The notes beneath the pieces are model-generated. The model was not told where the DNA came from. It did no database searches and saw nothing but the letters and a program-made list of their open reading frames with translations. Position numbers and translations under genes: made by a program. A stretch of 64,000 nt of DNA from an uncultured Sporolactobacillaceae bacterium (GTDB lineage: Bacteria; Bacillota; Bacilli; Bacillales; Sporolactobacillaceae). Location: NCBI GenBank assembly GCA_963829575.1, contig CAWHJF010000021.1:160767-224766 (forward strand), written 5' to 3'. Positions 3,405 to 60,527 of this stretch are shown piece after piece (position 1 is the first letter of the stretch; each line of letters starts with the position of its first letter).

Positions 3405-3442
3405 GTTCAAGAATCGCGATTTGTGGTTCTTGGGCTTTTTTT
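3405..3442 (+). terminator. Intrinsic terminator of the MFS gene
   Basis: The hairpin GTTCAAGAA..TTCTTGGGC is followed by TTTTTTT. Confidence 0.6.
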
Positions 3443-3510
3443 GTCGGTGCAGATGGGTGAGTGGGTGTTATGACAAGTCAAAAGACACAGAAGGATGAGG
3501 AAGAACAACT

Positions 3511-4972
3511 CTTCGTCTCCCTTTTATAACAATAACGGAACCTCGTGTCCCTTTTTTGAATTTGTGTACTCGACGTTCCGCTAACAGCTCGTTGGGTACG
3601 CTCACGGCGAGGTTACGTCCACCACGATTCGTTATTTCTTCAATTGGATCCAATATTCATAGATAAGTTGGCAAATTGAGGATCGGCGTGTCCCTTTTTT
3701 TCTGAAAACGCCCCTATTTATAACAATAACGGAACCTCGTCTCCCTTTTATGAATTTGTGTACTCGACATTCCGCTAATAGCTCGGTGTGTACGCTCACG
3801 GCGAGATTACGTCCACCACGATTCGTTATTTCTTCAAATGGATGCAATATTTATAGATAAGTTGGCAAATTGAGGATCGGCGTGTCCCTTTTTTTCTGAA
3901 AACGCTCCTATTTATAACAATAACGGAACCTCGTGTCCCTTTTATGAATTTGTGTACACGACGTTCCGCTAATAGCTCGTTGTGTACGCTCAGGGCGAGA
4001 TTACGTCCACCACGATTCGTTATTTCTTCAAATGGATGCAATATTTATAGATAAGTTGGCAAATTGAGGATCGGCGTGTTCCTTTTTTTCTGAAAACGCC
4101 CATATTTATAACAATAACGGAACCTCGTGTCCCTTTTATGAACTTGTGTACTCGACATTCCGCTACCAGCTCGTTGGGTACGCTCAGGGCGAGATTACGT
4201 CTACCACGATTCGTTATTTCTTCAAATGGATGCAATATTTATAGATAAGTTGGCAAATTGAGGATCGGCGTGTTCCTTTTTTTCTGAAAACGCCCATATT
4301 TATAACAATAACGGAACCTCGTGTCCCTTTTATGAACTTGTGTACTCGACATTCCGCTAACAGCTCGTTGGGTACGCTCACGGCGAGATTACGTCCACCA
4401 CGATTCGTTATTTCTTCAAATGGATGCAATATTTATAGATAAGTTGGCAAATTGAGGATCGGCGTGTTCCTTTTTTTCTGAAAACGCCCATATTTATAAC
4501 AATAACGGAACCTCGTGTCCCTTTTATGAACTTGTGTACTCGACATTCCGCTACCAGCTCGTTGGGTACGCTCAGGGCGAGATTACGTCTACCACGATTC
4601 GTTATTTCTTCAAATGGATGCAATATTTATAGATAAGTTGGCAAATTGAGGATCGGCGTGTCCCTTTTTTTCTGAAAACGCCCCTATTTATAACAATAAC
4701 GGAACCTCGTGTCCCTTTTATGAACTTGTGTACTCGACATTCCGCTACCAGCTCGTTGTGTACGCTCAGGGCGAGATTACGTCCACCACGATTCGTTATT
4801 TCTTCAAATGGATGCAATATTCATAGATAAGTTGGCAAATTGAGGATCGGCGTGTCCCTTTTTTCTAAAAACGCCCCTATTTATAACAATAACGGAACCT
4901 CGTGTCCCTTTTATGAACTTGTGTACTCGACATTCCGCTACCAGCTCGTAAGGCGCTCACTCGGGCGTTACA
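3511..4972. repeat. Tandem array A1: about 7.5 head-to-tail units of exactly 194 bp, non-coding
   Basis: The ORF-track starts 3653, 3847, 4041, 4235, 4429, 4623 and 4817 are spaced by exactly 194. Unit 4021-4214 is identical to unit 4409-4602. Units differ only by scattered substitutions, with no indels. The last unit decays at 4950-4972. Confidence 0.95.
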
Positions 4973-5403
4973 ACGCCATCTTTAAACCGAAAAAAAACCC
5001 TTCTAAATTCAAAGGGCGGTTGTTTCTTACGCCTCAATACGATCTGTAATATCCCGACCACCCCCAATTTGTTGAAGGAGAGTGTTCCTGCTTCATCACG
5101 AATCATTTCAACCGTCGTTTCATACCAGCGAAATAATCCGTTTTTATGTCGAACACGTCCAATGAATCTCACTGTAGCTTGATCGATGAATACCGCATTC
5201 CGTGTTTCTAATAATCTTATATTATCATCTGGATGATTTAAGGAGACGGACGGTTTTCCAATGACTTCTTCAGGCGTGTAGCCAAGTAGGGTTTCTACTG
5301 ATGGCGAAACATATGCGAAGACCCCATCTGGTGAAACCGAGAGATGGTTATCAAAGAAATACTGGAATACACCAGGATGTTCAAGAAATTTCTTTTGCAG
5401 CAT
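4957..5403 (-). CDS. Stand-alone PAS-domain protein; the 3' end is probably frameshifted
   Basis: The 148-aa ORF has a PAS fold signature (SPSVETLLGYTPEEVIGKP...HPDD...RHKNGLFRWYE). After the C5 run at 5061-5065, an alternative frame reads GGRDITDRIEA-stop (stop at 5027-5029), which is the usual PAS C-terminal boundary. The annotated tail instead runs into the repeat array. Confidence 0.65.
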   Translation of the reverse strand: MLQKKFLEHPGVFQYFFDNHLSVSPDGVFAYVSPSVETLLGYTPEEVIGKPSVSLNHPDDNIRLLETRNAVFIDQATVRFIGRVRHKNGLFRWYETTVEMIRDEAGTLSFNKLGVVGILQIVLRRKKQPPFEFRRVFFRFKDGVVTPE

Positions 5404-13883: not shown

Positions 13884-15008
13884 TTATCGTGACGGTTTCT
13901 TACCCCAAAATTGGTATAAATCGGTTCGGATCCGACCATTGTACAGCTTGCGTTTCTTGGTTGCTTTTTTGCCATAATGATTCTCAAATTGTTCATCCGC
14001 TGTGAGTACATAAATGGACCATGTCTCATAAGGCTTAAGCGCCTTTCCCATTTCCTTATAAAGTCGGTACACGTCCTCTTCCTCACCAATCCTTTGGCCA
14101 TACGGAGGATTCGAGATTAAGACGCCGTTTTCCTTTTTCGTTGTAAAATCGGTCACTTGCATTTGTTTAAATGTGATCAACTCACCAAACCCAGCTTCCT
14201 GAGCATTATTCATGGAGAGGTCGACCATGCGATGGTCAATATCGGAACCTTGAATATCAAGCGGTTGGTCGTAGTTGGCTCGGTCTTCGACTTCCATTCG
14301 AGCCTCTTCCCAGAATTCTTTTCCAATCCATCCCCATTGTTCAGAAATAAAGTCACGATTAAACCCTGGGGCAATGTTCTGACCGATCATCGCCGCCTCA
14401 ATTGGAATCGTTCCAGATCCACAAAACGGGTCAGCAAACGGTCGGTCCGGTGTCCATTTGGTTAAATAGATCATGGCCGCCGCGAGCGTTTCTTTAAGCG
14501 GTGCTTCCCCATGTAGATAACGATACCCTCTTTTATGTAATCCAGCTCCAGATGTATCAATGGTCAGGGTCGCTACATCTTTTAAAAGCGCAACTTCAAT
14601 TTTGTAGAGCGCGCCATCCTCATCGAACCAATCCTGGTGATAGGTTTCCTTCATTTTTTCAACAATGGCTTTTTTAACAATGGCCTGACAATCCGGCACA
14701 CTATACAAGCCTGATTTGATTGACTTTCCGTTTACTGGAAACTCCGCATCCTTTGGCAGCCAATCTGTCCATGGCAATGCCTTTGTTTTTTCAAAAAGCT
14801 CATCAAAACTGGTTGCTTTAAATTCCCCAATTTTCAATTTAATTCGATCTGCAGTTCGGAGCCAAAGGTTGGCCCGACAAAGATCTAGTGGCGTGGCTTC
14901 AAAGGTGACTCGGCCATTTTCAACTTTCAAATTGGTATACCCTAATGCCTTCAGTTCATCTGCACAAATGGCTTCAAGTCCCATCGCTGTCGTCGCGATT
15001 AATTCCAT
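13884..15008 (-). CDS. ypsC: THUMP-domain class I SAM-dependent RNA methyltransferase (YpsC/RlmL-like)
   Basis: 374 aa. It has the N-terminal THUMP region, the methyltransferase motifs DPFCGSGTIPIEAA and NPPYG, and sits next to rnpB and gpsB as in B. subtilis. Confidence 0.85.
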   Translation of the reverse strand: MELIATTAMGLEAICADELKALGYTNLKVENGRVTFEATPLDLCRANLWLRTADRIKLKIGEFKATSFDELFEKTKALPWTDWLPKDAEFPVNGKSIKSGLYSVPDCQAIVKKAIVEKMKETYHQDWFDEDGALYKIEVALLKDVATLTIDTSGAGLHKRGYRYLHGEAPLKETLAAAMIYLTKWTPDRPFADPFCGSGTIPIEAAMIGQNIAPGFNRDFISEQWGWIGKEFWEEARMEVEDRANYDQPLDIQGSDIDHRMVDLSMNNAQEAGFGELITFKQMQVTDFTTKKENGVLISNPPYGQRIGEEEDVYRLYKEMGKALKPYETWSIYVLTADEQFENHYGKKATKKRKLYNGRIRTDLYQFWGKKPSR

Positions 15009-15420
15009 ACAAAATTCTCCTCTTCATAAAACGATTTGCTTTAACAGTTGTCAACGTTTGATCCAACTTCATATATGTAAATAAGATCGATTCAAAGCAG
15101 TCCCTTAGTATTATAGACATGCAAGCTGTGAAAAATAAAGAGAAACACAAAATATATGTCACGTCGCAAAAAATAGGGTCACAGTGGTGCGTTATTTGCT
15201 TCTGTAAGGTGGTGCCACAAACTTTATGGCCACGACGATACGCTAACCCCATGATTCCACCTTAGAACGGGTAGGTTGAGGCGCAATAGCGGATCCTCAT
15301 GAACACAAACTTGGTCCGATCGGTGTTTTTGCCCTTTTAACGAATCTTCGAGGACACGTTTTAAAATTAGGTACACTGTGATGCGTTATGGCCTATGGTC
15401 CGCCCATCCTACCCCGTCTC

Positions 15421-15481: not shown

Positions 15482-15884
15482 GTGTTATTTGTGTTCTGTA
15501 AGCCATGTTCTGTACCTAGTACTGCAAACGGGCTGCCCCTCGTACGTTGGTGGCGATCATCTATCTACAGACACATCTGTCTCCCCTTCGTTGAATTCCC
15601 TCCAGGAAGTTCCTCTACCAAATTTGAGTTTCTCGCTCGTGGGGTTTACCTCGTTCCACTTCTCCTGTTTCCAGAAGAACTCCGTCACTGTGGCACTTTC
15701 AAGGGTATTAGACCATATCCCATAAGGACTTAGGTGATTCCCCTGCCGTTACCTGAATCGTCAGGCTACCCTAGCTTATTTTTTCGCTAGGCACGAACAC
15801 TACGATCATCTCAGATCGTGCGAGCATGGACTTTCCTCTATGCCTTCAAAGAGACACAGCGATCACCCAAACACAAATAACACG
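15482..15884 (-). ncRNA. rnpB: RNase P RNA, bacterial type B
   Basis: The reverse complement reads GTGTTATTTGTG...GAGGAAAGTCCATGCTCGCAC...GTGCCTAGCGAA...GAAAGTGCCACAGTGACG...GTAAACCCC...GGCTTACAGAACACAAATAACAC. This contains the universally conserved RNase P blocks and a P1 stem formed by the two ends. It lies between ypsC and gpsB as in B. subtilis. Confidence 0.93.
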
Positions 15885-24352: not shown

Positions 24353-24440
24353 TTGACTGATTATTAATACACCTTTAAAATATAGCTAACAGAACCCACC
24401 ACGCCTCTTTACAATGCGGACCACGGTGGGTCATTTTTTT
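24353..24440 (+). promoter_or_regulatory. Element E1: sigma-A-like promoter plus a short hairpin/T-run leader upstream of abi
   Basis: TTGACT (24353-24358), 17 nt, TAAAAT (24376-24381). Then ACCCACC...GGTGGGT followed by CATTTTTTT (24394-24440). A homologous copy lies at 26340-26424. Confidence 0.55.
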
Positions 24441-24460
24441 ATTTAAGGGGTTTATTTCTA

Positions 24461-25398
24461 ATGGACATTAGTAAAAATTTTAAAGAAATAAAAAATCCCA
24501 CTACCTTTAGTGAACAAATTGAACTGAACTCTATAAAAGCCGAAATTTAAAAATTGATGATATAGACTTTGCAGAAAACACCTTGAAGAGAATTAATTAT
24601 TATCGATTGCGAGGTTACACTTTAACTCTGATGGATCCTCAGAATAATGAGATCTTTGTAGACGGTAGCACATTTAATCAATTAATTTCGTTATATGAAT
24701 TTGATCGAAGACTTAGACAGTTATTTATGGCGTTCTTGGAAAGGATAGAAATTGCATTCCGTACACATATTACATACCATCTATCTCACTCATATGGTTC
24801 TTTGGGGTATACAAATAAAGAGGTCTTTATTAATGAAGATTTACACGAGGGCTTTCTCCTTGAGCTAGAAAAAGCCTTATTAAAAGGGAAAAATAGTGAA
24901 TCATTTGTAAAGCACTACTATGAGAATTATAACGGGGAATTTCCAATTTGGGTTGCTATTGAGGTTGCTTCATTTGGTACCATATCTAAATTATATAAAA
25001 ACCTAATACCTGAAATTAAGCAGGTCATCGGAAAAAACTATTATAATATCCCCTACTCTTATATTGAGAGTTGGTTGCAAACTCTATCAAACGTAAGAAA
25101 TGTTTGTGCTCATTATGGTAGATTATATAATAAAAATTTAACTTTTAAACCTCGTCTATTTAAAGAAGAAAGAAAAAACATAAATAATAATAAATTGTTT
25201 GCCGCAATCTATATTGCAATAAGACTGTTGACTAAGGTTGAAGGTAATAGATTTATTACTGATTTAGAGGCACTCATTCTCGAATATGAAAACCATGTTG
25301 ATTTTACATATATTGGACTACCCTTTGAATGGAAAGAACTCTTACTAATTATTAATTCTAGGAAACAAAGTAAAAATTCATCTTTTAACCTGAAATGA
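24461..25398 (+). pseudogene. Abi_2 (AbiD/AbiF-like) abortive-infection protein, disrupted by a 5-nt tandem duplication
   Basis: The main ORF has the Abi_2 hallmarks INYYRLRGY, SFGTISKLY and SNVRNVCAHYGRLYN. The N-terminus (MDISKNFKEIKNPTTFSEQIEL) is in another frame. GAACTGAACT at 24521-24530 is a duplicated GAACT, and removing one copy restores EQIELYKSRNLKIDD. Confidence 0.8.
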
Positions 25399-39856: not shown

Positions 39857-40897
39857 CTATACTTCAGGAAGCAAGACAACCTTGCCTAGTTTTCCTGCTT
39901 TTTTAAAATAAATTTGAGCTTCCCTCGCTTTTTCTAAGGGAAAAGTACGATCGATTACTGGTTTGATTTTCCCTTCAGAAATAGCGTGAAGCATACGTTT
40001 AAACTCTTCCCTTGTGCCCAATACAGAGCCATAAAGAGTAATATGCTTTAAGTACAATGTTCTAAAATCAAGCTCTGTCTTCTGTCCGCCAGCAGATCCA
40101 GATGTGCAAAATTTCCCACCTCTCTTCAGTACCTGAAGGGAAGTTGAGAACAAAGCATCTCCTACAACATCTAATACCGAGTCAATCGGACCTTCATTCA
40201 CTTCTATTATTTCTTCAGCAAGTTTATTTGATTTATAAGACAATACATGGGTTGCTCCCAATTCCTTCATTTTTTCTTCCAAACCTAAGTCACCTACAAT
40301 AGCGATGACCTTAGCACCAAATACTTTTGAGGCAATTTGTACATTTAATGATCCAACACCACCATTTGCCCCAGTTACCATAACAGTCTCCCCAGGTTGA
40401 ACTTGAATTTGTTCTACCATATGCCATGCTGTTAAACCACTAACAGAAAAAACAGCACTTTCTATATAGTCGGACAGAGGCATATCAAAACAAAGGTGAG
40501 CTGGCCACACTACATATTCCGCATATCCACCATCATATTCTGAACCAATGAAGGACATATCTTCTGAAATATGTTCAAAACCAACATCTCCACTTGATGT
40601 AAATGGGAAAAGGACAACATTTTTTCCAATCATGGATTTAGCCACAGATTCCCCAACCTTTACGACGCTTCCTGTTATATCAGAGCCGGGTGTACGAGGA
40701 AATTGAACTCCTTCTGGTCGCCATCCAGACTTGGAACCAGTGCCATAAGCTCCTTCCCTCATCCAGATTTCTGTATTATTTATTGCACAAGCCTTTACTT
40801 TGATTAGCACTTCATTTTCTTTAGGTTCTGGTATAGCTTTTGTAACGATTTCTAATTTATCTACATCACCGTATCCCGTCACTTGGACAGCTTTCAT
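39857..40897 (-). CDS. Zinc-type alcohol dehydrogenase/quinone oxidoreductase (MDR superfamily)
   Basis: 346 aa with a GroES-like N-terminus and the Rossmann motif VTGANGGVGS. Confidence 0.85.
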   Translation of the reverse strand: MKAVQVTGYGDVDKLEIVTKAIPEPKENEVLIKVKACAINNTEIWMREGAYGTGSKSGWRPEGVQFPRTPGSDITGSVVKVGESVAKSMIGKNVVLFPFTSSGDVGFEHISEDMSFIGSEYDGGYAEYVVWPAHLCFDMPLSDYIESAVFSVSGLTAWHMVEQIQVQPGETVMVTGANGGVGSLNVQIASKVFGAKVIAIVGDLGLEEKMKELGATHVLSYKSNKLAEEIIEVNEGPIDSVLDVVGDALFSTSLQVLKRGGKFCTSGSAGGQKTELDFRTLYLKHITLYGSVLGTREEFKRMLHAISEGKIKPVIDRTFPLEKAREAQIYFKKAGKLGKVVLLPEV

Positions 40898-41306
40898 AAG
40901 TTGATCGCCTCTCTTTTTTTGGATCGTTAAGTGTTTAGTATTATATGTGTGCTCTTAGTTTCGTCAAAATAACTTCCCAGTTAAATGAAAAATTTCATGA
41001 CCTCACAGATCTTTAGATATAAATCATAACAAAAAATAATGAATTTGACATGGAAAGAGGGAAACGACATGTATCTATATACAGCTTAGTTAAGTCATAC
41101 TCGTTGAAAATGGTTTCTGCGCATTATAAATTAAATACATTGTAAAATTTACATTAAATAGGAACATTGTTGTTCTTGGTTCCATGCCCTTGATTTTGTT
41201 AGATCGCTCTTTTGATTCTTGTCCTCAGTTACAGCTAATCCTATTAGAAAAAAGTCTACCTTTTCTTATGTTAAGGTGGAGTCCACTCTTATGTAAAAGT
41301 CACCTT

Positions 41307-41864
41307 TTATTTCACTATTTTTACGATAATTAAACGAGCGACCGATGTGGATACCATATAAAACAAAAAAGAATAAATAAATTTCCAATCATATAATTTA
41401 TAATAGCCAATCCAAACAAACATGGGTTCTGCTGCAAAAGCAAGAAAACATGCCGTAATCAAATTTGAAATTAAGAAGATTCTCAGCGAAGATAAAGAAA
41501 AGAATTGGTAACCAATCATGAAGACAATCGGTACTAAAATGGAGTCTGCAGTTAGTAATGGAGGAACAATTGGAATCATCTTTATTGGATAACTCCACCA
41601 AGATAAATTTGTCCCAATATCATCAAGAATAACAGCCATAATATTAATCATACACCCATAAAAGGCAATCTCATAGGCTCTACTTTTATCGAGAACCTTC
41701 CACCATATGAATAATGGAATAATGGTTAAGCCAACAAGGAGCCACCATTCCCAGGTTAAAAAAGTTGCATGGAGCCACTGACTTACATCAAGTCTATGTA
41801 ATTCCGCCCTCACTTGTTGCGCTTTTAGAAAGGTTTTTGTGACATGGTTCGTGTTGATTAGCAT
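41307..41864 (-). CDS. Polytopic membrane protein (possibly CBO0543-like), unknown function
   Basis: 185-aa hydrophobic, Trp-rich ORF. The family name is recalled from memory only. Confidence 0.5.
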   Translation of the reverse strand: MLINTNHVTKTFLKAQQVRAELHRLDVSQWLHATFLTWEWWLLVGLTIIPLFIWWKVLDKSRAYEIAFYGCMINIMAVILDDIGTNLSWWSYPIKMIPIVPPLLTADSILVPIVFMIGYQFFSLSSLRIFLISNLITACFLAFAAEPMFVWIGYYKLYDWKFIYSFLFYMVSTSVARLIIVKIVK

Positions 41865-41952
41865 CTCTCATCCATTCCTTATGGTTTTCGTTAGATTTCA
41901 AAAGGATTTGCTCAATCACAGGTTAGATCCACTTCATAAGAATCAATCTCTG

Positions 41953-42417
41953 TTATGACCTCTTAATCTTCGCAACGCCTAAGGCAAAGTGATTGAAAAG
42001 GACATTTTCTACAAATTCAGTTTGCGCCTCTTCACAGTCAATTATTAAAATGACCTCAGAATGTTTCCCTTTCATTAGCTTTTTTCTTTTCTTATAGATT
42101 TTCTCAATGAAAAGTCTAATTACGAAACCTAAGGCAAAGCCAACAATAGCACCAATTATTCCCCAATAAATAGGTCCCCATGATAATTCAAATCCAATAC
42201 TTGCTCCAATGACAGAAAGGGCAGTTCCAAGCACCATACCTATATCGATTAAAGAGGTCCCATCCGAACGATGATGCGTATCGAATAGTTTCCGGTCTTC
42301 CTTTCGATTATCTAATGGAATAGCAAATATGTTGTCTTGAGAAAATCCCTTTTTCTCTATCGCCATTTCCAAAAAGATATGATTTTCAAATGTGGAAAAT
42401 AGTTGCATATAAGTCAC
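41953..42417 (-). CDS. Hypothetical membrane protein (154 aa)
   Basis: The ORF has two central TM helices. ATGA overlap with the upstream small gene suggests an operon. Confidence 0.5.
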   Translation of the reverse strand: MTYMQLFSTFENHIFLEMAIEKKGFSQDNIFAIPLDNRKEDRKLFDTHHRSDGTSLIDIGMVLGTALSVIGASIGFELSWGPIYWGIIGAIVGFALGFVIRLFIEKIYKKRKKLMKGKHSEVILIIDCEEAQTEFVENVLFNHFALGVAKIKRS

Positions 42418-42735
42418 TCTACTTTCTGCCCCTTTAAGATCTGAAAGCTTGGTTCTTGATAGTTTTCTATCAAAAAACTTCTCTGTACCTTTTCATAGAG
42501 TTTATTATTTTCGACAGTATTTACAAAAGAATCAAAAATTGAAAACCCGTATAATGATGGAAAAAATAATAACCACTCGGGCTTTAAAACGGACGTTGCT
42601 TGTTGGATTTCTCCTAAAAATAGCAAACTCACCACTTCTAGTGTGTGTGAATAGTAAAAAAATATGACAGACCAAATAATAACAAAAAAAAGCAGTAACA
42701 ATCCTATGAATATAGAGTTGTCCTAGGCCAGGCAT
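42414..42735 (-). pseudogene. Small membrane protein (PGLGQLY N-terminal motif), split at a T8/A8 homopolymer
   Basis: ORF 42532..42735 (MPGLGQLYIHRIVTAFF..) and ORF 42414..42701 (..FFVIIWSVIFFYYSH..) join into one roughly 106-aa ORF if the A8 run at 42683-42690 is shortened by 1 nt. Confidence 0.6.
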
Positions 42736-42889
42736 TAAAACTTAATTACTTGCGATTAATAGCAGAATTTTGTTGATTTCCCTCAAAAAAATACCCAATA
42801 ATGACTGAACTGTCATTATTGGGTATTAAAGAAATTAAACAGGAAAAAATATGCATTTTAACTTTATGGAGCCGATGACGATGCACCGA

Positions 42890-43833
42890 TCATTTAACTT
42901 TGATCACTATTTTCCCTTTGGCATGATGTGTTTCACTTAATGCATGTGCTTCTTGTAACTCTTCTGCTGAAAAGTCAAATACATGTCCCACTTGTGGCTT
43001 GATAATTTCTTTCTCAAGTAAGTCGCCTATTTCACTTAACTGTTTACCATTTGGCGTTAACCAATAGGAGCTTGCCGTTACTTGATGCTTTTCTGCCAAT
43101 TCTGGATCGGGTTGTCCGGCAATCGTGACCAGTCTGCCACCAGGTTTTAGTACTTGGAAGCTTTTATTTAAGATGTCACCGCCCATTGTATCAATGACCA
43201 CATCATAATCACTTAATTCTTCTTCAAATTGTTGTGTGCGGTAATTAATAAATTGATCTGCACCTAGCTCTTTAACATAAGCTTCATTTTTATCACTTGC
43301 TGTTGTCGCGACATAGGCACCCAAATGTTTCGCCATTTGAATAGCTAAACTTCCTACACCACCCGCTCCAGCATGAATAAGGACTTTATCTCCTTGCTTG
43401 ACTTTTGTGTGATCCACTAGACATTGCCAAGCGGTTAAACCTGCTAATGGAATAGAGGCTGCTTCTTCAAAGTCAGGTTACTTGGTTTTTTCGCAAGCAA
43501 TTCCTCTTCCACAGCCACAAATTCCGCATAAGTCCCTTCAGCGGTAGTTGCCGGTCGTGCAAAAATTTCATCCCCGACTTGAAAATTCTTTACTTCACTT
43601 CCGACCTCCACGATCTTGCCCGCAACATCCCAGCCAAGGATAATTGGGAATGACCAATCCAGCATCTGCTTCAAGTAACCCGCACGAAGCTTCCAATCAA
43701 TCGGATTAATGGAGGTTGCATAAACCTCAACAAGGACTTGGTTTGCTTTAATTTTGGGTTTCGGTTGTTCCTGTTCTACTAACACATCTTTATTACCATA
43801 TTCATTGATGACAACTGCACGCATGACTAGCAC
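42890..43833 (-). pseudogene. NADPH:quinone oxidoreductase (MDR family), split by a 1-nt deletion
   Basis: ORF 43444..43833 ends ..KKPSNLTLKKQPLFH*. The next frame reads FEEAASIPLAGLTAWQCLVDHTKVKQGDKVLIHAGAGGVG and continues into ORF 42890..43417. The break is at the A3 run 43469-43471. Confidence 0.8.
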
Positions 43834-44169
43834 TCCCTTTTACTTTTGCGAAATATATTTGCACGTTCTATTATTAGTATCTTACTAATAAGTCATTCCT
43901 TCTCTTCAGTGCATGAGAAAAGTCATACTTATAATTCTTCATTTATCTATCAATTTGAGACAAATTATATTTTAGCTTCTAATAGCTTGTAATCCAAATC
44001 ATCTGCTTATGAGTTGTAAATTATGAAGCAAATATCCGTCTCTTTGATAAAAGAAATTTATTTTCCAACGAACTTTTTCTGCTTTCTCATTTCGAATCAA
44101 GTGTTCACCTTTACTAAAATGTAACTATTTATCATGTTTTGAAGCGATGATGAAAATTATTAGAAGGTT

Positions 44170-44345
44170 ATTTATAAACATGGCACCCATGACCTGTGCG
44201 TTAGTATATCCAACAGATACGAAACCGGGCTCGTTTTCAAGTTTTCGCTTTTTCAAAAGCTTCCTCTCCGTAAGGAAACCCTTCCACAGGGTTATATGTG
44301 TGTTGGCGTATGTAAGATGACTTCTCAGCGTTTAAAATTAGTTGG
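44170..44345 (-). pseudogene. Fourth, strongly decayed yyaL 5' fragment
   Basis: The minus strand reads ..[30 protein letters not shown], then (shifted) ENEPGFVSVGYTNAQVMGAM. It is recognisably the [31 protein letters not shown] segment. Confidence 0.6.
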
Positions 44346-44806
44346 CATTGGATCACCTTCTTTATTTTTAATCAATTCCATTGTTATGTTTACCTTAAAA
44401 AAGAAAAACACTAATAAATCAGCTCCACGATTTAAACAAAAATACTAATGGATGGTACATGTTTTTTCATCGTTGGATTGGGAGGAATCCAACGGTATTC
44501 CTTTTATTCTCGATCTTTTTAAAGTCGTTGCCAAGTCTCTTCAATTTAAATCAACACCCTATTTTTCAATTATCTTCCATAAATGTCAATAGGATCTGGA
44601 TTTTTCGTACATAACCTTCTGCCTTTTTGGTCATATTAAGTATCGAAAGGCGCAAGTGCATTAGACAGTCGGATCTTAAAGGGAGATGGTTGCGTTGAAC
44701 AAGTCACTTGAAAAAGTCACTGGTCACCAATAAAACCATAAACTTCTAGAAAGAAGGGTCTCTGAAAGATACTAACCGAACGTCCACAGAAGCTTAACCC
44801 TTTCAT

Positions 44807-44839
44807 GGGGTTCTATCCTTGCGATAGAGCCCCTTTTTT
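44807..44839 (+). terminator. Strong orphan intrinsic terminator on the plus strand
   Basis: GGGGTTCTATC-CTTGC-GATAGAGCCCC followed by TTTTTT. No annotated plus-strand gene lies upstream. Confidence 0.6.
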
Positions 44840-44942
44840 ATGATCTTTATTTAACTGGTCAAAATTGAAATCCTGCTGAACGCATGCCCTTTTATATATT
44901 TATAATTGAATAGTATAGAAAAAGAAGAAGCGGGAATGAGAT

Positions 44943-46118
44943 TTAATGCTCTTCCCCTGCTTCTTTTTTTACTTTGTTCCATATAATCTTAAAGATTGTT
45001 TTATCCTCATTCGACTGTACTGAAATTACAGCATCATGTTTTTCTACAATCTGTTTTACAACGGCCAAACCTAGGCCTGTACCTAAATTCTTTGTTGTTA
45101 CAAATGGTTCAAATATATTTTCCACTAAATGTGCAGGTATCATTTTACCATTATTTGAAATTTCAACTTCAACCTTATCCTTTACTGCTTTTAATTCAAT
45201 TTCAATCTTTCGGTTTTCATTTTGTTCTGTAAGTTCCTCTACTGCGTTATTTAGAATGTTTAATAAAATTTGTTTAATTTGTTCTTCTACGGCATAAATA
45301 TAACATTCTTCTTGAATCGATGACCGCACTTCAATTTTTTCATCCACAAAACGCGGATACATAAACTCCACCATCATTGTTGCGACCTTCGAAAGATCAA
45401 ATCTCTTCATTTCATCATCTAAACCTTTTGTTTTCGATAAAAATAAAAATCTAGATACCTTATCTTGTAAACTTATCATTTCTTGATCAAGTACACTAAA
45501 ATAAAAATTACTTTCCTGATCATCTTTATACTTTTCCTCAAGTAAAGAAATAAACCCTTTAATAGATGTTAAGGGATTTCTAAATTCATGAGCAAAGCTT
45601 GCGGCAATTTGCCCTAAAATTGTTAATCGATCATGATGCATTTCCTTAATAAATTTGCTCTTTTCTGATATGATAGAATCCTTTAAATTTGTATACTCTT
45701 TTACTGCATAGTAAACGTAAGAATCAAACATTTGATTGACAACCATAATTGCTAACAGCTTGTCCTCTTCAACCAAATCATCTGATTCCACAATAATCCC
45801 AATAACAATCGAACAACCAATATTAATATTTTGCACAAATTCACTAATATTTATATTGGCTTCTATTCTTTCTCTAGCAATTTTCTTTGTTAATTCAATA
45901 ATCGGTGCAACCTCTTTGGTTTCCATGTACATATCTATTAAATGGATCGTGCGTTTCCCATTTTCTATTATTTCATCATAAAATGGATCTTGTTTAGATA
46001 TCTTTGCCGTTTCTAACCATTTATCTAATATTTTTTCTTCTACCTTTTTCAAAAACATTGAAAACAGATTGACAAATGACTTATTAAAATTTATATCAAT
46101 GATCAAAGGAATCACCAT
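44943..46118 (-). CDS. Cytoplasmic sensor histidine kinase (sporulation-kinase-like H-box)
   Basis: H-box (ASFAHEFRNPLTSIKGF), N box (LNILNNAVE) and G box (GTGLGLAVVKQIVE) are present, with no TM segments. The probable start is ATG 46058 (MFLKKVEEKIL). Confidence 0.8.
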   Translation of the reverse strand: MVIPLIIDINFNKSFVNLFSMFLKKVEEKILDKWLETAKISKQDPFYDEIIENGKRTIHLIDMYMETKEVAPIIELTKKIARERIEANINISEFVQNINIGCSIVIGIIVESDDLVEEDKLLAIMVVNQMFDSYVYYAVKEYTNLKDSIISEKSKFIKEMHHDRLTILGQIAASFAHEFRNPLTSIKGFISLLEEKYKDDQESNFYFSVLDQEMISLQDKVSRFLFLSKTKGLDDEMKRFDLSKVATMMVEFMYPRFVDEKIEVRSSIQEECYIYAVEEQIKQILLNILNNAVEELTEQNENRKIEIELKAVKDKVEVEISNNGKMIPAHLVENIFEPFVTTKNLGTGLGLAVVKQIVEKHDAVISVQSNEDKTIFKIIWNKVKKEAGEEH

Positions 46119-46810
46119 CTTTCCAAAACTATATTATCACAATTTCAATGACCTCTTAATGTTTTTTTGTAATAGTAAAAATTTATATAACTAATTAAGA
46201 CTTTCAAACCGTTGAACGGCTTTTTATTTTCACTAAATTCACATGATAAGATCCTTATTAAATTTAACAACCACTAAGAAAACAAAAGCCGACACATATT
46301 CTCCCGTTTTTGTTTAGTATAGAATTGTATAGAAAAGGCGGTTGCCCCCACCCTCAAGCCTATGTATAGAAAAATGTTATTATTTTTGAAGCTGTGAAGC
46401 TTACAAGACCTATTACAATTAAAACTTAATGAAACTAAATAAATTCAAATGAATTCATTAGAAATCGTTCATCTACTATAGCTCGATCAAAAAAAGAGCT
46501 CAAATGAATGAACTCTTATGCGGGTGTTTTATTATTTCAAGTAGCGAGACGCACTTGACATGAGTTGTGAGTTCTTCGCAGACACATTGATATAATGGTG
46601 TTTGCCTTTATTGTATATCTAACAATCGTGCCCAATTGTAGAAGTTATCCATAATCAATACTTTTGTACGGGAGAATAAAGGTGTACACAGATTCTTTCA
46701 TTGCACGCCACCTAAACTAAAAAATGGACGATACCTTTGCTTTAGACTTGTCCCTAAAAGCATCAAAACGCTTTTGATCACCCACAATGGCTGCTGTACC
46801 CATTTCAGAT

Positions 46811-46847
46811 CAAAAAAAATCCCCCCTCTTTCAATTAGTGGGGAGAT
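46811..46847 (-). terminator. Terminator downstream of the larE-like gene
   Basis: The minus strand reads ATCTCCCC-loop-GGGGGGAT followed by TTTTTTT. Confidence 0.55.
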
Positions 46848-46880
46848 CAGCTCATGTAAGTTAAAATAAAAGTGTAACAA

Positions 46881-47714
46881 CTAGAACGAGTTCTCTGGCA
46901 AGTGATTCATACTTCCTGATTTAAAACCGTTTAAATCTAAAGTGACATACTTATACCCTAATTTTTGAAGGGTCTTTGTAATGTCTTCGTGATTTTCTAA
47001 AACCACAGACAGATCTTTTGGCTCAACTTCAATTCGTGCAATCTCTCCGTGAGTCCGGACACGATATTGTCTGATTCCCAATGCCTTTAAGTAAGCTTCT
47101 GATTGTTCAACTTTAGTTAATTTTTCCCGAGTAATTTCTTCTCCATAAGCAATTCGAGAGGATAAACAAGCGAAGGATGGTTTATTCCATGTTGGCAAAT
47201 CCAAGGATTTTGAAAGTTCACGAATCTCTTCTTTAAATAATTTCGCCTCTTGCAAGGGGCCTCTTACTCCAGCTTCCTTTGCAGCTTTAATACCTGGGCG
47301 AAAATCACTCGAATCATCTGCGATTAATCCGTAAACCACATTCTTAAATCCTACCTCTTTCATAATAGGAAGAACTTCTTCGAATAACCCTTTCTTGCAG
47401 AAATAGCAACGACTCGTATTATTTTGCGTATACCCTGGAATGGCAAGCTCTGATGTTTCAATGACTCTATGCGACGCTCCAATAAGAGCAGCCAGGTCCT
47501 TGGCCTCTTTTAACTCACTGGACGGATAGCTTTCAGAGTCAGCCGTTACCGCTAGCACATTTTCAGAGCCTAGCACATCGAGTGCTACTTTTAATAAAAA
47601 AGTACTATCTACCCCACCTGAAAAGGCAACCACAACGTTACCCATGTCTTGAAGAATCTTTTCTAATTGCCGATATTTTTCTTGAAGCATAAGGTCCCTC
47701 CTTTCATCATTCAT
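46881..47714 (-). CDS. larE: PP-loop ATP-utilising enzyme of the LarE (sacrificial sulfur transferase) family
   Basis: It has the PP-loop VAFSGGVDSTFLL and the conserved Cys region SFACLSSRI. 277 aa. No larA/B/C genes are nearby. Confidence 0.65.
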   Translation of the reverse strand: MNDERRDLMLQEKYRQLEKILQDMGNVVVAFSGGVDSTFLLKVALDVLGSENVLAVTADSESYPSSELKEAKDLAALIGASHRVIETSELAIPGYTQNNTSRCYFCKKGLFEEVLPIMKEVGFKNVVYGLIADDSSDFRPGIKAAKEAGVRGPLQEAKLFKEEIRELSKSLDLPTWNKPSFACLSSRIAYGEEITREKLTKVEQSEAYLKALGIRQYRVRTHGEIARIEVEPKDLSVVLENHEDITKTLQKLGYKYVTLDLNGFKSGSMNHLPENSF

Positions 47715-47735
47715 TCAGACTACTATTCCGTCAGT

Positions 47736-48608
47736 TTAGAATGGCATGTTTTCGAATGGGGTTGAGTAATCAGGAATCTGACTTAAGAGTTCTTCGGCTT
47801 CAACATCTGTCATCTCTCCAAAACGCAACACGGCATCCACAATTTTCGGGAATAAATGAACGTCTCCAGCACTTGCAAAAGCAGAAATACTGTCATGTGA
47901 TAAAACAAAATGCACACAAGCATCGATAATTTTCTGTTGATCGAACGGCTCATACCAAGTCGCATATTTTTTGTGTTGATTTTCTTTCCAAGGACCTTTT
48001 GCAATCGCCTTGATCACGCGAAGTGCCACATCCTGTTTTTTGGTCTCTGCAGCCAATGCATCAAAATCCTCTTTGAATTCAGGAATGGAATATAAGTAAT
48101 AATTAAAAGGTGTTAAAACAGCATCAAATGCATAACGCTTTAATGCTTCCAAATGAGTGGCTGGAGCAAGATGACCGTGTCCAGTGATCCCAATCGCATC
48201 GACTAACCCTTCTTCTTTGGCTTCTATGGCAGCTTCCAAAGCCCCACCTTTTTTTGTACACTTATCTAAATCTTCAAGATTACAAACAGCATGGAGCTGA
48301 ATCAAATCAAGTTTCTCAACCTGTAAACGTTTTAAAGAATTAAGAATTTCGGCTTTCGCTTTCTCTTTTGAGCGTTCCCCCGTTTTAGTCGCCAAAAAAA
48401 TTTGATCTCTAACTTTTGGCATCCATGGTCCCATTCTAAGTTCTGCTTCTCCGTAACTTGCGGCCGTATCAAAATGGTTCACTCCGTTTTTCAAGGCAAG
48501 TGAAATGGATTCATCCGCTTCTTCTTGTGTGACCGCTCCCAATGATGCAGCACCAAACATAACAGCCGAACTCATATAACCCAAACGGCCCAAACGACGT
48601 TTTAACAT
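47736..48608 (-). CDS. Aldo/keto reductase
   Basis: The 290-aa ORF has [15 protein letters not shown] and LIQLHAV motifs. Confidence 0.85.
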
Positions 48609-55532: not shown

Positions 55533-56151
55533 ATGGCTCGGTCATTTCACCACGCATCGGAGGAACCATTAGATGAAAATTTGCAGATCTCGCCTCCATC
55601 AACTGTCCATAGAGACACGGCTTTACCACCTATGATTTTGCCTGACCAAGGGCAGTCCTCTGAAAAGGCTTACGAAACCGTACATCGTGACTTGGCATTA
55701 GACGGCAATCCCCTACTTAATCTTGCCACATTCGTCACAACTTGGATGGATCCTTATGCGGATCGTTTATATGCCGAATCCTACAACAAGAACTTAATAG
55801 ACAAAAGAGCCTTTTGAAATCTTCACACACGGCTCGCATCTTCCTGTTGTGACATGGAAATTAAAAGACGCGTATACCTCCAATTGGACACTTAAAGACT
55901 TAGCTCGACAGCTATGGACCTTTGGCTGGCAAGTGCCCGCATATCCTCTTCCGGAAAAAATGGAAGACATTATGATCATGCGCGTTGTTGTTCGTCATGG
56001 ATTTTCCATGGATCTGGCTCACTATTTTATGAAAAATCTCAAACAGGCTCTCGACTATTTGGATTCTTTGGATGCACCATTACCTCGAGATCCAAAAAAA
56101 GACATAGGTTTTCATCATGAAGCAAAAGGTCCAACCCATCCAAGTATCTAG
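55533..56151 (+). pseudogene. Glutamate decarboxylase remnant (N-terminal about 95 aa and C-terminal about 100 aa; PLP core deleted)
   Basis: ..HRDLALDGNPLLNLATFVTTWMDPYADRLYAESYNKNLIDK.. stops at 55817. ORF 55849..56151 reads ..LARQLWTFGWQVPAYPLPEKMEDIMIMRVVVRHGFSMDLA.., which is the typical Gad C-terminus. Confidence 0.7.
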
Positions 56152-58258: not shown

Positions 58259-58413
58259 CTTCTTCTATGATGATCTTTAAAATTACTAAACGGGTTAAAA
58301 AGGAACCACCGTGATCATGTGACCACAGTGGATAGTTTGATGCTATTATAATAGAGCTATTCAAAGTCGAAATGGTTTCAATAACTCGTAAATGCTACGT
58401 GTGTTCATATTTT

Positions 58414-59026
58414 ATAATTGTGGACTCGACAATCCGCAATTAGCTTGTTTAATGCTCTCGCTCGGGTGTTGCGTCCACCACGATCCGCTATTCCCTTCAA
58501 ATCGATCTCAATTATTAGGAAAAATGCCAATTAGCGGATCCAGATGTCCCTTCTCTTTCGCAAACTAGTCTGATCAGGACGATAAAGGATCCTCGTGGCC
58601 CCTTTTCTAATTTGTGGACTCGACAATCCTCTATTTGCTTGTGCCACGCTCTCACTCGGGTGTTACGTCCACCACGATCCGCTATTCCCTTCAAATCGAT
58701 CTCAATTATTAGGAAAAATGCCAATTAGCGGATCCAGATGTCCCTTTTCTTTCGCAAACCAGTCTGATCAGGACGATAAAGGATCCTCGTGGCCCCTTTT
58801 TTAATTTGTGGACTCGACAATCCTCTATTTGCTTGTGCCACGCTTTCGCTCGGGTGTTGCGTCCACCACGATCCGCTATTCCCTTCAAATCGATCTCGAT
58901 TATTAGGAAAAATGCCAATTAGCGGATCCAGATGTCCCTTTTCTTTCGCAAACCAGTCTGATCAGGACGATAAAGGATCCTCGTGGCCCCTTTTTTAATT
59001 TGTGGACTCGACAATCCTCTATTTGT
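58414..59026. repeat. Tandem array A2: about 3.2 units of exactly 194 bp, related to array A1
   Basis: GTGGACTCGAC recurs at 58420, 58614, 58808 and 59002 (a spacing of 194 each). The array begins and ends in the same block. It shares ordered conserved blocks with A1. Confidence 0.95.
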
Positions 59027-59171
59027 TCGATTCAGGGACGCTAACCTCATTCCTTGCTCTACCGTTTGAAACAGCCCCTATACATTCTACAGGAAATTCA
59101 GTTCGTCATTGATGCTGAGCCGTAACAGCTACTTTTAAGGTATTAACTGTAAAAAATGATGGATAAGTGTT

Positions 59172-60527
59172 TTAGATAATGTTAATTTTTTGCCCTGGGA
59201 AAATATAGGGAGAAGATAGGTTGTTGGCTTTCATCAATTTTTTAGTATTGGTGTCATTCAAGAGGGCAATATCCCATAAGGTATCCCCTTTTTTCACCGT
59301 ATACGAAAGTGTTTTCGGAGCTTTGACCGACGCCATTTTCACTTGGCTGTCTGTTGATGGTACACGTGTTTGACTTGTTTTTAGCTTTTGACCCGGGTAA
59401 ATGATATAAGATGTCAGATGATTAAGAGACATCAAATTGGATAAAGAAACGCCTTCTGTATGCGCAATCGCGGATAGCGTGTCCCCTTTTTTCACCGTAT
59501 AAGTTGTCGTCGTAGCGGTTGTTTGGGTTGACAATATGGTTGCCGGTGCAGATGGGGCTGAACTCTTTTGGGCGACTGGTGTTGGTTTGGCCGATGACGT
59601 TGAATTTCTAAGTGATAACGAGTGACCCGGGAAAATTAAATCACTTCCCAGTTGATTAAGCGATTTTAATTGAGCAACAGTCAGGTTAAATTTCTGACCT
59701 ATTTTTGACAACGTATCACCAGAAACAACCGTGTATGTAGATGGTGATACGTTTTGTGTTGGGACGGGCTGGACGGCTGCTTTAGAAGTCGAACTCTTAG
59801 TGGTTTGAGTTGTCGTTACCGTTTGAAGACGAACCTTTATTTGTTCACCCGGAAAAATGATGTCCGCGGTCAATTTATTTATCGTTTTGAGCTCAGCCAC
59901 TGAAATGCCATATTTTTGACTAATTAACCAAAGCGAATCACCCGATTGAACCGTATGAACGGCCGAACTCGACACATTGGAGGATGGATTGGAAGTCGTT
60001 GTGGGTGTGGCATTTGGAATCGGTGTGACCTGAGTTGTTGGATTTGCAGATTGGACGATTTGCTCAAGAGAGATCGGTGTATTTAGGACTCGTCTTGCTG
60101 TCACATAACGCGACGTCCAATAAGAGCTGTTCATATTGGTGATTTTAACACCTGAGAGAATGGCATTTAGCATTTGGTTGTTCCCTATATAAATCCCCAC
60201 ATGATCAATAACGCCATTAAAACTCGTATCAAAGAAGACAAGATCCCCAACTTGTAAGTCGGCTTTTTGAACTGCAGTCCCGACTTTTGCTTGATCAGCT
60301 GCTACTCTTGGAAGAATTATGCCATTTTGCTTAAAAACAGTCGCAGTAAAAGAAGAGCAGTCAAATTCGTTAAGGTTCCCGACCAAGGCACCATAGACAT
60401 ACGGCTTACCTATGTATTGTTCTCCCGTTTGAACAATATCGGTCGAACTTGCAGCCAACGCGCTAGAATGGGCTGTTAAAACGATTCCCCCTGCCAGAAC
60501 AATCGGCGCAATAGCAAATTTCTTCAT
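59172..60527 (-). CDS. NlpC/P60 peptidoglycan endopeptidase with four C-terminal LysM domains
   Basis: It has a signal peptide, the catalytic region FDCSSFTATVF...VIDHVGIYIG, and then four LysM repeats (VQSGDSLWLIS, VVSGDTLSKIG, VKKGDTLSAIA, VKKGDTLWDIA). ATG 60527 follows GGGAGG. Confidence 0.88.
   Translation of the reverse strand: MKKFAIAPIVLAGGIVLTAHSSALAASSTDIVQTGEQYIGKPYVYGALVGNLNEFDCSSFTATVFKQNGIILPRVAADQAKVGTAVQKADLQVGDLVFFDTSFNGVIDHVGIYIGNNQMLNAILSGVKITNMNSSYWTSRYVTARRVLNTPISLEQIVQSANPTTQVTPIPNATPTTTSNPSSNVSSSAVHTVQSGDSLWLISQKYGISVAELKTINKLTADIIFPGEQIKVRLQTVTTTQTTKSSTSKAAVQPVPTQNVSPSTYTVVSGDTLSKIGQKFNLTVAQLKSLNQLGSDLIFPGHSLSLRNSTSSAKPTPVAQKSSAPSAPATILSTQTTATTTTYTVKKGDTLSAIAHTEGVSLSNLMSLNHLTSYIIYPGQKLKTSQTRVPSTDSQVKMASVKAPKTLSYTVKKGDTLWDIALLNDTNTKKLMKANNLSSPYIFPGQKINII

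Follow-up and report, generated by a model that had tools for sequence, protein, structure and literature searches.

A constrained 194-bp intergenic repeat with four fixed sites of one 21-nt motif in a Sporolactobacillaceae genome: a candidate duplex-DNA recognition module

Repetitive extragenic palindromic (REP) sequences and the bacterial interspersed mosaic elements (BIMEs) are found outside genes as solitary copies, doublets and arrays near the 3' ends of genes and can form hairpins in the transcripts; the BIME-2 type is a tandem repetition of units in which REPs of opposite orientation follow each other at regular intervals and serve as binding sites for gyrase, IHF and Pol I (PMC2817692). 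In Firmicutes, BOX of Streptococcus pneumoniae and STAR of Staphylococcus aureus are lineage-specific modular intergenic repeats (PMC3049150, PMC3532100). Here we analyse a stretch of 64,000 nucleotides from an uncultured Sporolactobacillaceae bacterium (contig CAWHJF010000021.1, positions 160,767 to 224,766; in the following "the window"), which carries two tandem arrays, A1 and A2, of a 194-bp unit and a solo copy of this unit. Species-specific extragenic repeats such as REP/BIME, BOX, STAR and NIME are known, but to our knowledge a partner or role has been defined for few of them, and hardly any have been described for the Sporolactobacillaceae branch of the Bacillales. The 194-bp repeat is a real, constrained and lineage-specific family with a previously unnoticed four-site design, whereas its role is only proposed.

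Tandem Repeats Finder detected three tandem repeats in the window, namely A1 with a period of 194 bp (7.4 copies, 96% matches, no indels), A2 with the same period (3.2 copies, 95% matches, 0% indels) and a two-copy repeat of 30 bp at 14655-14684. Together with the nhmmer envelopes (Table 1) this bears out a preliminary description, made from the letters of the window alone, of two 194-bp arrays in one orientation that are clearly diverged while unit length and block order are kept: the consensus units of A1 and A2 agree at 122 of 194 positions (63%) in a gap-free alignment. Each of the four ordered conserved blocks on which that description was based was found once per unit, in an order and register common to both arrays. 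The blocks gave 10-15 matches each in the window compared to 0-0.12 expected from shuffled sequences, and a scan of the whole window that allowed up to 2-3 mismatches found none outside the arrays. Identical runs shared by A1 and A2 reach 13 nt at most, which according to our own estimate is ordinary at 63% identity; the run length of the blocks alone is unremarkable, and the strong signal lies in the exact spacing and in the conservation of motif positions relative to the linkers.

The blocks proved to be four copies, b1 to b4, of one 21-nt motif with the consensus AATAGCGGATCGTCGTGTCCC, of which blocks 3 and 4 are oriented forward and blocks 1 and 2 in reverse. The unit thus reads b4 forward, 13 nt, b1 reverse, 30 nt, b2 reverse, 37 nt, b3 forward, 30 nt and then the next unit, corresponding to start-to-start spacings of 34 bp (b4-b1), 51 bp (b1-b2), 58 bp (b2-b3) and 51 bp (b3-b4). 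These spacings sum to 194 bp and do not differ between the two arrays and the solo copy. Since the blocks are forward and reverse copies of the same motif, the nhmmer model of the unit detects the units in reverse-complemented form as well (E down to 1.4e-7), the reverse complement of b1 resembling b4 and that of b2 resembling b3. Among the 13 distinct motif copies the positions G7, G17 and C20 are invariant, and T3, A4, C6, A9, C11 and G15 are strongly conserved. Altogether A1 contains 30 motif sites, A2 13 and the solo copy five.

The solo copy was detected on the minus strand of the window at 15166-15400 by an nhmmer model derived from array units only (E = 5.6e-5). It comprises 1.2 units (b4-b1-b2-b3-b4), is inverted relative to A1 and A2, and is located between the terminator of rnpB and the promoter of ypsC. 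Its identity with either array amounts to 47-50% over 237 aligned positions without any internal gap. A weight matrix constructed from the eight array copies only and scored against the solo locus and 121,772 background positions assigned 76.3 bits to the five sites of the solo locus at the array offsets, while the best background position reached -13.5, and moving any single offset by 1-4 nt led to a loss of 11-61 bits. At the motif positions A1 and A2 are 79% identical and the arrays share 65% and 64% with the solo copy; at the non-motif positions the corresponding values are 53% (A1/A2) and 35% and 32% (arrays/solo copy), chance being about 25%. The Fisher test of motif against non-motif conservation gave p = 2.7e-4 for A1/A2 and p = 2.4e-5 and 1.1e-5 for the arrays and the solo copy, values which are somewhat inflated and the test partly circular because the motif bounds were drawn after inspection; the spacing result is independent of these bounds. 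From the linker identity of 32-35% and the gap-free alignment it follows that between the solo copy and the arrays the sequence of the four linkers has been nearly randomised, while their lengths of 13, 30, 37 and 30 nt are unchanged. The view that the 194-bp unit is constrained and does not result from slippage alone, already put forward in the preliminary description, is therefore supported and strengthened, as a copy of 47-50% identity still holds all five sites at the array offsets.

Three functions had been considered there for the unit, namely a structured RNA gene, a protein-binding or iteron-like module and the propagating unit of a mobile satellite. The protein-binding module fits best, since the conserved features are one motif in both orientations and its exact spacing, the linkers being free. 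We suggest, with a probability of roughly 0.4, that the 194-bp unit represents a fixed-geometry, four-site recognition module on duplex DNA for a putative sequence-specific protein. Such a protein would recognise the 21-nt motif on duplex DNA, possibly by two contact patches which, judging from B-DNA geometry, would be about one helical turn apart, as the conserved motif positions fall into two patches about 10 nt apart. The fixed spacing, in which direct copies lie 51 bp or about five turns of B-DNA apart, may permit the cooperative binding of several protomers, so that an array would provide a dense multi-site binding platform. The arrays presumably grow, shrink and homogenise by unequal recombination or gene conversion while their edges decay, and the family would be restricted to a Sporolactobacillaceae-like lineage and located in intergenic DNA just beyond the 3' ends of minus-strand transcription units. 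That the sequence of the motif is kept rather than its pairing is indicated by partner arms that are no more complementary than others and by a hairpin stability that varies from locus to locus (see below). Protein binding as the cause of the constraint, DNA rather than RNA as the target, the cooperativity and a role in titration, chromosome organisation or transposase recognition are what we infer from this pattern.

Table 1. Positions of the arrays, the motif sites and the adjacent hairpins in the window
Feature	Position	Strand	Remarks
Array A1	3519-4949 (Tandem Repeats Finder core); 3505-4991 (nhmmer envelope)	orientation as A2	7.4 units
Array A2	58410-59025 (Tandem Repeats Finder core); 58380-59052 (nhmmer envelope)	unit plus sense = window +	3.2 units
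A1 unit core	4113-4276		b4 4113 (+), b1 4147 (-), b2 4198 (-), b3 4256 (+); every 194 bp from 3531
A2 b4	58581-58601; also 58775, 58969, degenerate 58387	+	GATAAAGGATCCTCGTGGCCC
A2 b1	58615-58635; also 58421, 58809, 59003	-	reads AATAGAGGATTGTCGAGTCCA; 34 bp after b4 start
A2 b2	58666-58686; also 58472, 58860	-	AATAGCGGATCGTGGTGGACG; the ACGTCCACCACGAT block of the preliminary description; 51 bp after b1
A2 b3	58724-58744; also 58530, 58918	+	ATTAGCGGATCCAGATGTCCC; 58 bp after b2, 51 bp before next b4
Solo copy	15156-15396	-	1.2 units; inverted relative to A1 and A2
Solo b4a	15370-15390	-	motif scan
Solo b1	15336-15356	+	motif scan
Solo b2	15285-15305	+	motif scan
Solo b3	15227-15247	-	motif scan
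Solo b4b	15176-15196	-	motif scan; two b4 copies 194 bp apart
Terminator-like hairpin	58306-58331	-	11 pairs and T run; some 50-75 bp beyond A2 on its low-coordinate side (58380-58410)
Terminator-like hairpin of PAS-domain gene	4997-5017	-	abuts the high-coordinate edge of A1
Hairpin and T run closing the other side of A1	about 3407-3445		read from sequence; not listed by the terminator scan

The edges of the arrays differ from their interior. On the left A2 is bordered by a degenerate motif copy, a b4 with an apparent indel as read from the sequence, and on the right by a decayed partial unit, so that its flanks hold eroded remnants of the unit. A1 begins with a copy of the b4 motif and closes in a partial unit from 4919. 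The linker CGCTCACTCGGGCGTTAC of this terminal partial unit (4919-4991) matches the A2 consensus at 16 of 18 positions and the A1 interior at 11 of 18, as read from the alignment; the edge of A1 thus seems to keep an older state, and the interior variant, which is of equal length, seems to have spread through the array later. Given the internal homogeneity of 95-96%, the A2-like linker in the terminal unit of A1 and the eroded flanks of A2, the array pattern is that of concerted evolution through unequal exchange, in which homogenisation does not reach the edges. In another data set two Logan short-read contigs (L007, L008) carry identical flanking genes and end at the two edges of A2, as is expected of a genuine repeat.

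The window is part of the chromosome of a spore-forming bacterium of the order Bacillales. Its YpsC protein shares 80% identity with the YpsC of Pullulanibacillus sp. KACC 23026, with further matches in Pullulanibacillus, Tuberibacillus and Scopulibacillus, and the class B RNase P RNA (rnpB) is encoded at 15494-15874. The GC skew is negative along the entire plus strand, which identifies the minus strand as the leading strand. All three repeat loci are intergenic and are located just downstream of minus-strand genes. A1 lies between genes for an MFS transporter (plus strand) and a PAS-domain protein (minus strand), with terminator-like hairpins on either side, and A2 between an NlpC/P60-LysM gene, which ends at 59172, and a FUSC-family gene, both on the minus strand. 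That the arrays have no neighbouring gene for a transposase, a reverse transcriptase, a Cas protein or a recombinase was confirmed from the flanking genes and the gene content of the window, where no transposase, integrase, reverse transcriptase or cas genes were detected. The terminator scan found no terminator between the NlpC/P60-LysM gene and A2. On the other side of A2 the hairpin at 58331-58306 ends 48 nt upstream of the start of the FUSC-family open reading frame (58258), a distance that leaves scant room for a promoter; the hairpin could be a leader or attenuator, or the true start codon of the FUSC-family gene could be located further downstream.

Elsewhere in the window, an abiF RNA motif (RF03085) was detected with 38.3 bits at a gathering score of 37, directly upstream of a gene encoding an Abi_2 (abortive-infection) protein (24395-25398). 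This is the usual pairing for RF03085, and the GC content nearby is about 0.34-0.35 (24-32 kb). A second stretch of low GC content (0.34-0.37) at 40001-48000 shows a strongly negative GC skew and may be acquired DNA; the genes checked there are ordinary ones for a histidine kinase, an aldo-keto reductase and an NAD-synthase-like PP-loop protein. At 55560-56151 a CotJA-like gene is followed by two short open reading frames which resemble the N-terminal and the C-terminal end, respectively, of a glutamate decarboxylase and for which Pfam gave no match; they may represent a gene remnant with a large internal deletion.

The orthologous locus in related bacteria was compared with that of the solo copy. 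In Pullulanibacillus sp. KACC 23026 the rnpB-ypsC spacer consists of the terminator, 12 nt and then the conserved ypsC promoter, so that about 280 bp including the solo copy are specific to the lineage of the window in this comparison. The copy is likewise absent from the orthologous rnpB-ypsC locus of P. pueri and of a JGI relative. The promoter region of ypsC itself (TTTATTTTTCA..GCATGTCTATAATACTAA; window 15008-15140, L024:9850-10000) is conserved in Pullulanibacillus sp. KACC 23026, although the spacers that precede it differ by about 280 bp. In two close relatives (L025:4906-4959, L026:96-150), in which rnpB is not adjacent, a 21-bp tandem repeat (AAAAAGCTAGAATG..., 2.6 copies) is located upstream of ypsC.

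Single units outside the arrays, for which the preliminary description had proposed a search, exist insofar as the solo copy was found in the window; no copy was detected by nhmmer and a scan for the four-site architecture in about 100 kb from Pullulanibacillus and other relatives (L021-L031), and with the same two methods the loci around ypsC in relatives likewise proved free of it. A blastn comparison of both arrays and the solo copy with 72,556 plasmids and 50,697 phages gave no match. Exact-pattern scans returned four single chance matches from unrelated phyla among 185,579 species genomes, two chance matches among viral contigs and 12 matches in JGI metagenomes, all of the latter in high-GC coding sequence and nine of them in one conserved gene. 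Absence in these scans is weak evidence, because an exact match of the A1/A2 type was needed and even the solo copy of the window would have escaped. The route via synteny of the FUSC-family gene led to distant homologues (48-53%) which are not syntenic. A 15-nt identity to the b3 of A1 in one of the relatives (L024) lies within a coding region of the LacI family and was rejected as a chance match. Pullulanibacillus sp. KACC 23026 (CP119107.1) possesses a tandem array of its own (L021:14580-15486; 52 bp x 17.5, super-period 208 bp x 4.4), flanked by genes for a histidine kinase and an ECF sigma factor, with two hairpins per 52-bp unit, one stem of which visibly covaries. Kinship of the 194-bp unit with this array was rejected on the basis of a lacking motif match and lacking blastn similarity. 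For a dispersed 190-bp element that B. subtilis may possess, a search of the literature gave no record.

Several observations weigh against the interpretation of the unit as a duplex-DNA module. The independent sequences are three in number and originate from one genome, and to this is added the circularity of the motif test mentioned above. The isolated motif gave six matches above 10 bits elsewhere in the window and 1-11 in shuffled sequences, which is not above chance, while the operator of a regulator would be expected elsewhere as well. No DNA-binding gene is consistently located beside the three loci, and no candidate for the binding protein was found. The forward copies close in CCC and a T run and the reverse copies in ACA or ACG, rendering the dyad of the unit imperfect; this polarity of the ends could point to a strand-specific role, i.e. 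one of RNA. Furthermore, two hairpins are possible in the unit, H1 between b4 and b1 (13-nt loop) and H2 between b2 and b3 (37-nt loop). On the minus strand of the window H1 reaches z = -4.4 (A1) and z = -4.6 (A2) compared to shuffled sequences, and two coordinated double changes are present in the b4/b1 arms.

These folding results would be accommodated by a transcribed hairpin element or structured non-coding RNA on the minus strand of the window, produced either as a 3' extension of the upstream genes or as an RNA of its own, with one H1 and one H2 per unit that would act in stabilising or terminating transcripts or as targets of an RNA-binding protein. H2 likewise gives z = -3.75 (A2) and -2.4 (solo copy) on this strand, the consensus fold is paired to 96.3% on the minus strand compared to 83.4% on the plus strand with six pairs carrying double changes, and the location of the loci downstream of minus-strand genes as well as the lack of a terminator between the NlpC/P60-LysM gene and A2, followed by a strong minus-strand terminator after A2, would be in agreement with transcription through the repeat. 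We nevertheless regard an RNA element as doubtful. H1 is unstable in the solo copy and H2 in A1, and the folding of whole units is not significant (z from -1.9 to +0.8). Partner arms are complementary at 13.2 of 21 positions and non-partner forward and reverse copies at 12.6 of 21, and permutation of the partners reaches the observed value in 12 of 36 cases; the wobble-type mismatches favour the minus sense of the unit in H1, but its plus sense where H2 of A1 or the solo copy is concerned. As the orientation of the solo copy is opposite to that of the arrays, no single sense of the unit is common to the loci. Promoter-like sites were detected neither inside the two arrays nor beside A1, and beside A2 the only one is a weak minus-strand site (9/12, 59185-59156), fewer than in shuffled sequences. 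A loop of exactly 37 nt with free sequence would also be atypical of RNA hairpins. Since the partner arms match no better than others, the strand favoured by the wobbles is inconsistent and the hairpins are unstable from locus to locus, the pairing potential seems to be incidental to the presence of one conserved sequence in both orientations. For the same reason the double changes in b4/b1 and the G-U pairs of the minus strand were rejected as proof of RNA by covariation, being neither partner-specific nor confined to one strand according to the permutation and the wobble counts. No Rfam 15 family (ribozymes, riboswitches, rRNA fragments and Bacillaceae-1 included) reached its gathering score in any of the three loci: cmscan returned no match at E <= 10 for A2, and for A1 and the region of the solo copy only chance-level matches to unrelated families (E 0.05-8.6) far below the gathering scores. 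As to the structured RNA gene of the preliminary description, H1 is significant on the minus strand in the arrays only, and double changes are present, but whole units are not significant and partner arms match no better than others; the case for a structured RNA is weak, although with three independent sequences only a role as RNA keeps some probability. A neutral satellite, in which a quasi-palindromic ancestor was copied to three places and expanded in two of them by slippage or unequal crossing-over, would explain the conservation as residual ancestry and is consistent with arrays that are homogeneous inside and decayed at the edges, with the ordinary length of the longest A1/A2 run, and with the fact that the data sets scanned yielded neither a sign of expression nor a partner gene nor conservation across species. 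It appears distinctly improbable, as the linkers of the solo copy and the arrays are near saturation (32-35%) while the four spacer lengths are unchanged and the motif sites remain at 64-66%; judging from general indel-to-substitution ratios, decay of this depth should have left several indels, and the degenerate b4 at the edge of A2, by contrast with the kept spacers, does seem to hold one.

Two further explanations assign the unit to elements of known kinds. It may be a non-autonomous, MITE-like element (MITE, miniature inverted-repeat transposable element), the motifs being transposase sites, two per end (b1 and b2, b3 and b4), in the manner of Tn552, Tn7 or Mu, for a transposase encoded elsewhere; the arrays would then be head-to-tail clusters that were later amplified locally. 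Two direct 21-nt sites do face two inverted ones at fixed spacing, b1 begins with TG in all three loci, three loci in both orientations occur within 64 kb, and the element is missing from the rnpB-ypsC spacer of the three relatives named above as well as from the other loci examined in relatives. We still consider a MITE-like origin unlikely, since no transposase or integrase gene was found in the window, sharp ends and target-site duplications are lacking, the edges grading into degenerate copies, the outer tips differ (TGTAC in b1, GGGAC on the other strand in b4), the loci are 37-52% diverged and thus unlike a recent burst, and plasmids and phages gave no blastn match. The additional b4 of the solo copy also implies that it is not a clean single element. 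For the mobile satellite of the preliminary description this means that the empty orthologous site in relatives speaks in favour, whereas the eroded edges and the lack of a target duplication and of a transposase speak against it. A disguised array of a known type, i.e. a CRISPR-like array, a type III (ToxI-like) antitoxin or integron attC sites, is suggested by the regular spacing of the units and by the succession of A2, terminator and gene in minus sense, as in toxI-terminator-toxN; it is contradicted by the tests on spacers, cas genes, toxin gene, period and core sites detailed below and has practically no chance of being correct. In order of decreasing probability we thus arrive at the duplex-DNA module, the RNA element, the MITE-like element and the neutral satellite, the first and the third of which overlap, as the proposed protein could be a transposase.

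Several other candidates were examined and rejected. An array of protein-coding or small open reading frames is incompatible with a period that is not a multiple of 3, with stops in all six frames of both consensus units and with the lack of an open reading frame common to A1 and A2. No tRNA or tmRNA was predicted in the unit by ARAGORN. Tandem genes for small RNAs with a promoter and a terminator in each unit were rejected owing to the lack of an internal promoter and because only weak 5-bp hairpins occur in A1, which are not conserved in A2. A sponge with GGA loops for a CsrA-type protein was rejected because the H1 loop of A2 reads GGGGCC and GGA is not conserved.

The 194-bp unit displays an unusually clean signature of constraint, i.e. 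a 21-nt motif in two orientations and exact spacing with randomised linkers. The motif could serve as bait for the putative binding factor, the 30, 13 and five sites of the three loci forming a natural dosage series. If this factor were a transposase, a new array-forming family of MITE-like elements would be documented; if it were a host protein, the repeat would represent a new chromosomal organising or titrating element. It also seems unlikely, if conceivable, that the unit is the cis-element of an undescribed system of the Sporolactobacillaceae-like lineage, either a chromosomal nucleoprotein array (a binding platform or titration locus new for Firmicutes) which a sequence-specific protein would assemble on the four phased 21-bp sites of each unit, or a multi-hairpin RNA whose repeated motif would be read by an RNA-binding protein, with the 34/51/58/51 geometry as the functional core. 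In practical terms, assemblies from short reads are interrupted at such arrays, which the Logan contigs illustrate.

In comparison with known systems, a CRISPR array was rejected because the "spacers" are the same in every unit, the motif copies are both direct and inverted, and cas genes are lacking in the window. Integron attC sites were rejected as well, since no R'' (RYYYAAC) and R' (GTTRRRY) core sites were recognised by eye, the units do not vary as cassettes would but are identical, and intI is absent from the window. ToxI-like repeats measure 34-45 nt and are followed by a terminator and a gene for an endoribonuclease of the ToxN/AbiQ family. A2 resembles these arrays in that, in minus sense, a tandem non-coding array is followed by a terminator and a gene. 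A type III toxin-antitoxin system was rejected, as the period of 194 nt is about five times longer, the gene after the terminator of A2 encodes a FUSC-family (FUSC_2) membrane protein of 650 amino acids, and no toxin gene follows A1 or the solo copy.

Iterons and repeat centromeres, such as sopC of F with its twelve 43-bp repeats, lie beside rep or par genes on plasmids and consist of repeats of about 22 or 43 bp in one orientation. The likeness to the 194-bp arrays is a functional analogy, namely arrays of protein-binding sites (as proposed here) at a fixed phase, whereas the arrays and the solo copy are chromosomal, are flanked by MFS/PAS, FUSC/NlpC-P60 and rnpB/ypsC genes, and have neither a rep or par partner nor a plasmid match. 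The ends of Mu, Tn7 and Tn552 carry several transposase sites of 21-23 bp which are direct within an end and inverted between the ends and for which the spacing matters. Similarly, b1 and b4 as well as b2 and b3 are inverted copies, as is characteristic of terminal inverted repeats, and b1 begins with TG; in contrast to these ends the unit lacks a transposase in the window, defined termini and a target duplication, has unequal tips and is present in old, diverged copies.

BOX elements are composed as boxA-boxB(n)-boxC, and STAR consists of a short, directly repeated GC-rich motif at intervals of about 55 bp, in both cases with direct reiteration only. The 194-bp repeat shares with them the character of a lineage-specific intergenic repeat in which an internal module is variably reiterated, but differs in sequence, in the four-site dyad layout and in the 194-bp period, neither of which occurs in BOX or STAR. 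REPs are defined as imperfect GC-rich palindromes of 20-40 nt with a 5' GTAG or GTGG head, present in hundreds of copies and associated with a gene for a REP-associated tyrosine transposase (RAYT). The 194-bp unit shows no sequence similarity to BIMEs or REPs, its 21-nt motif is not self-complementary, has no GTAG head when compared with the REP table of PMC2817692 and is not a GC-rich palindrome, its sites are ordered forward-reverse-reverse-forward instead of alternating, with four sites in a 194-bp period, its host is a Firmicute, and no RAYT gene was found in the window. In common with BIME-2 and the REP clusters of enterobacteria and Xanthomonas and with the REPINs of Pseudomonas, it consists of non-coding, extragenic tandem units that combine short motifs in both orientations. 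Judged by this analogy, and although the 194-bp unit is not one of its members, BIME-2 appears to be the closest architecture described so far.

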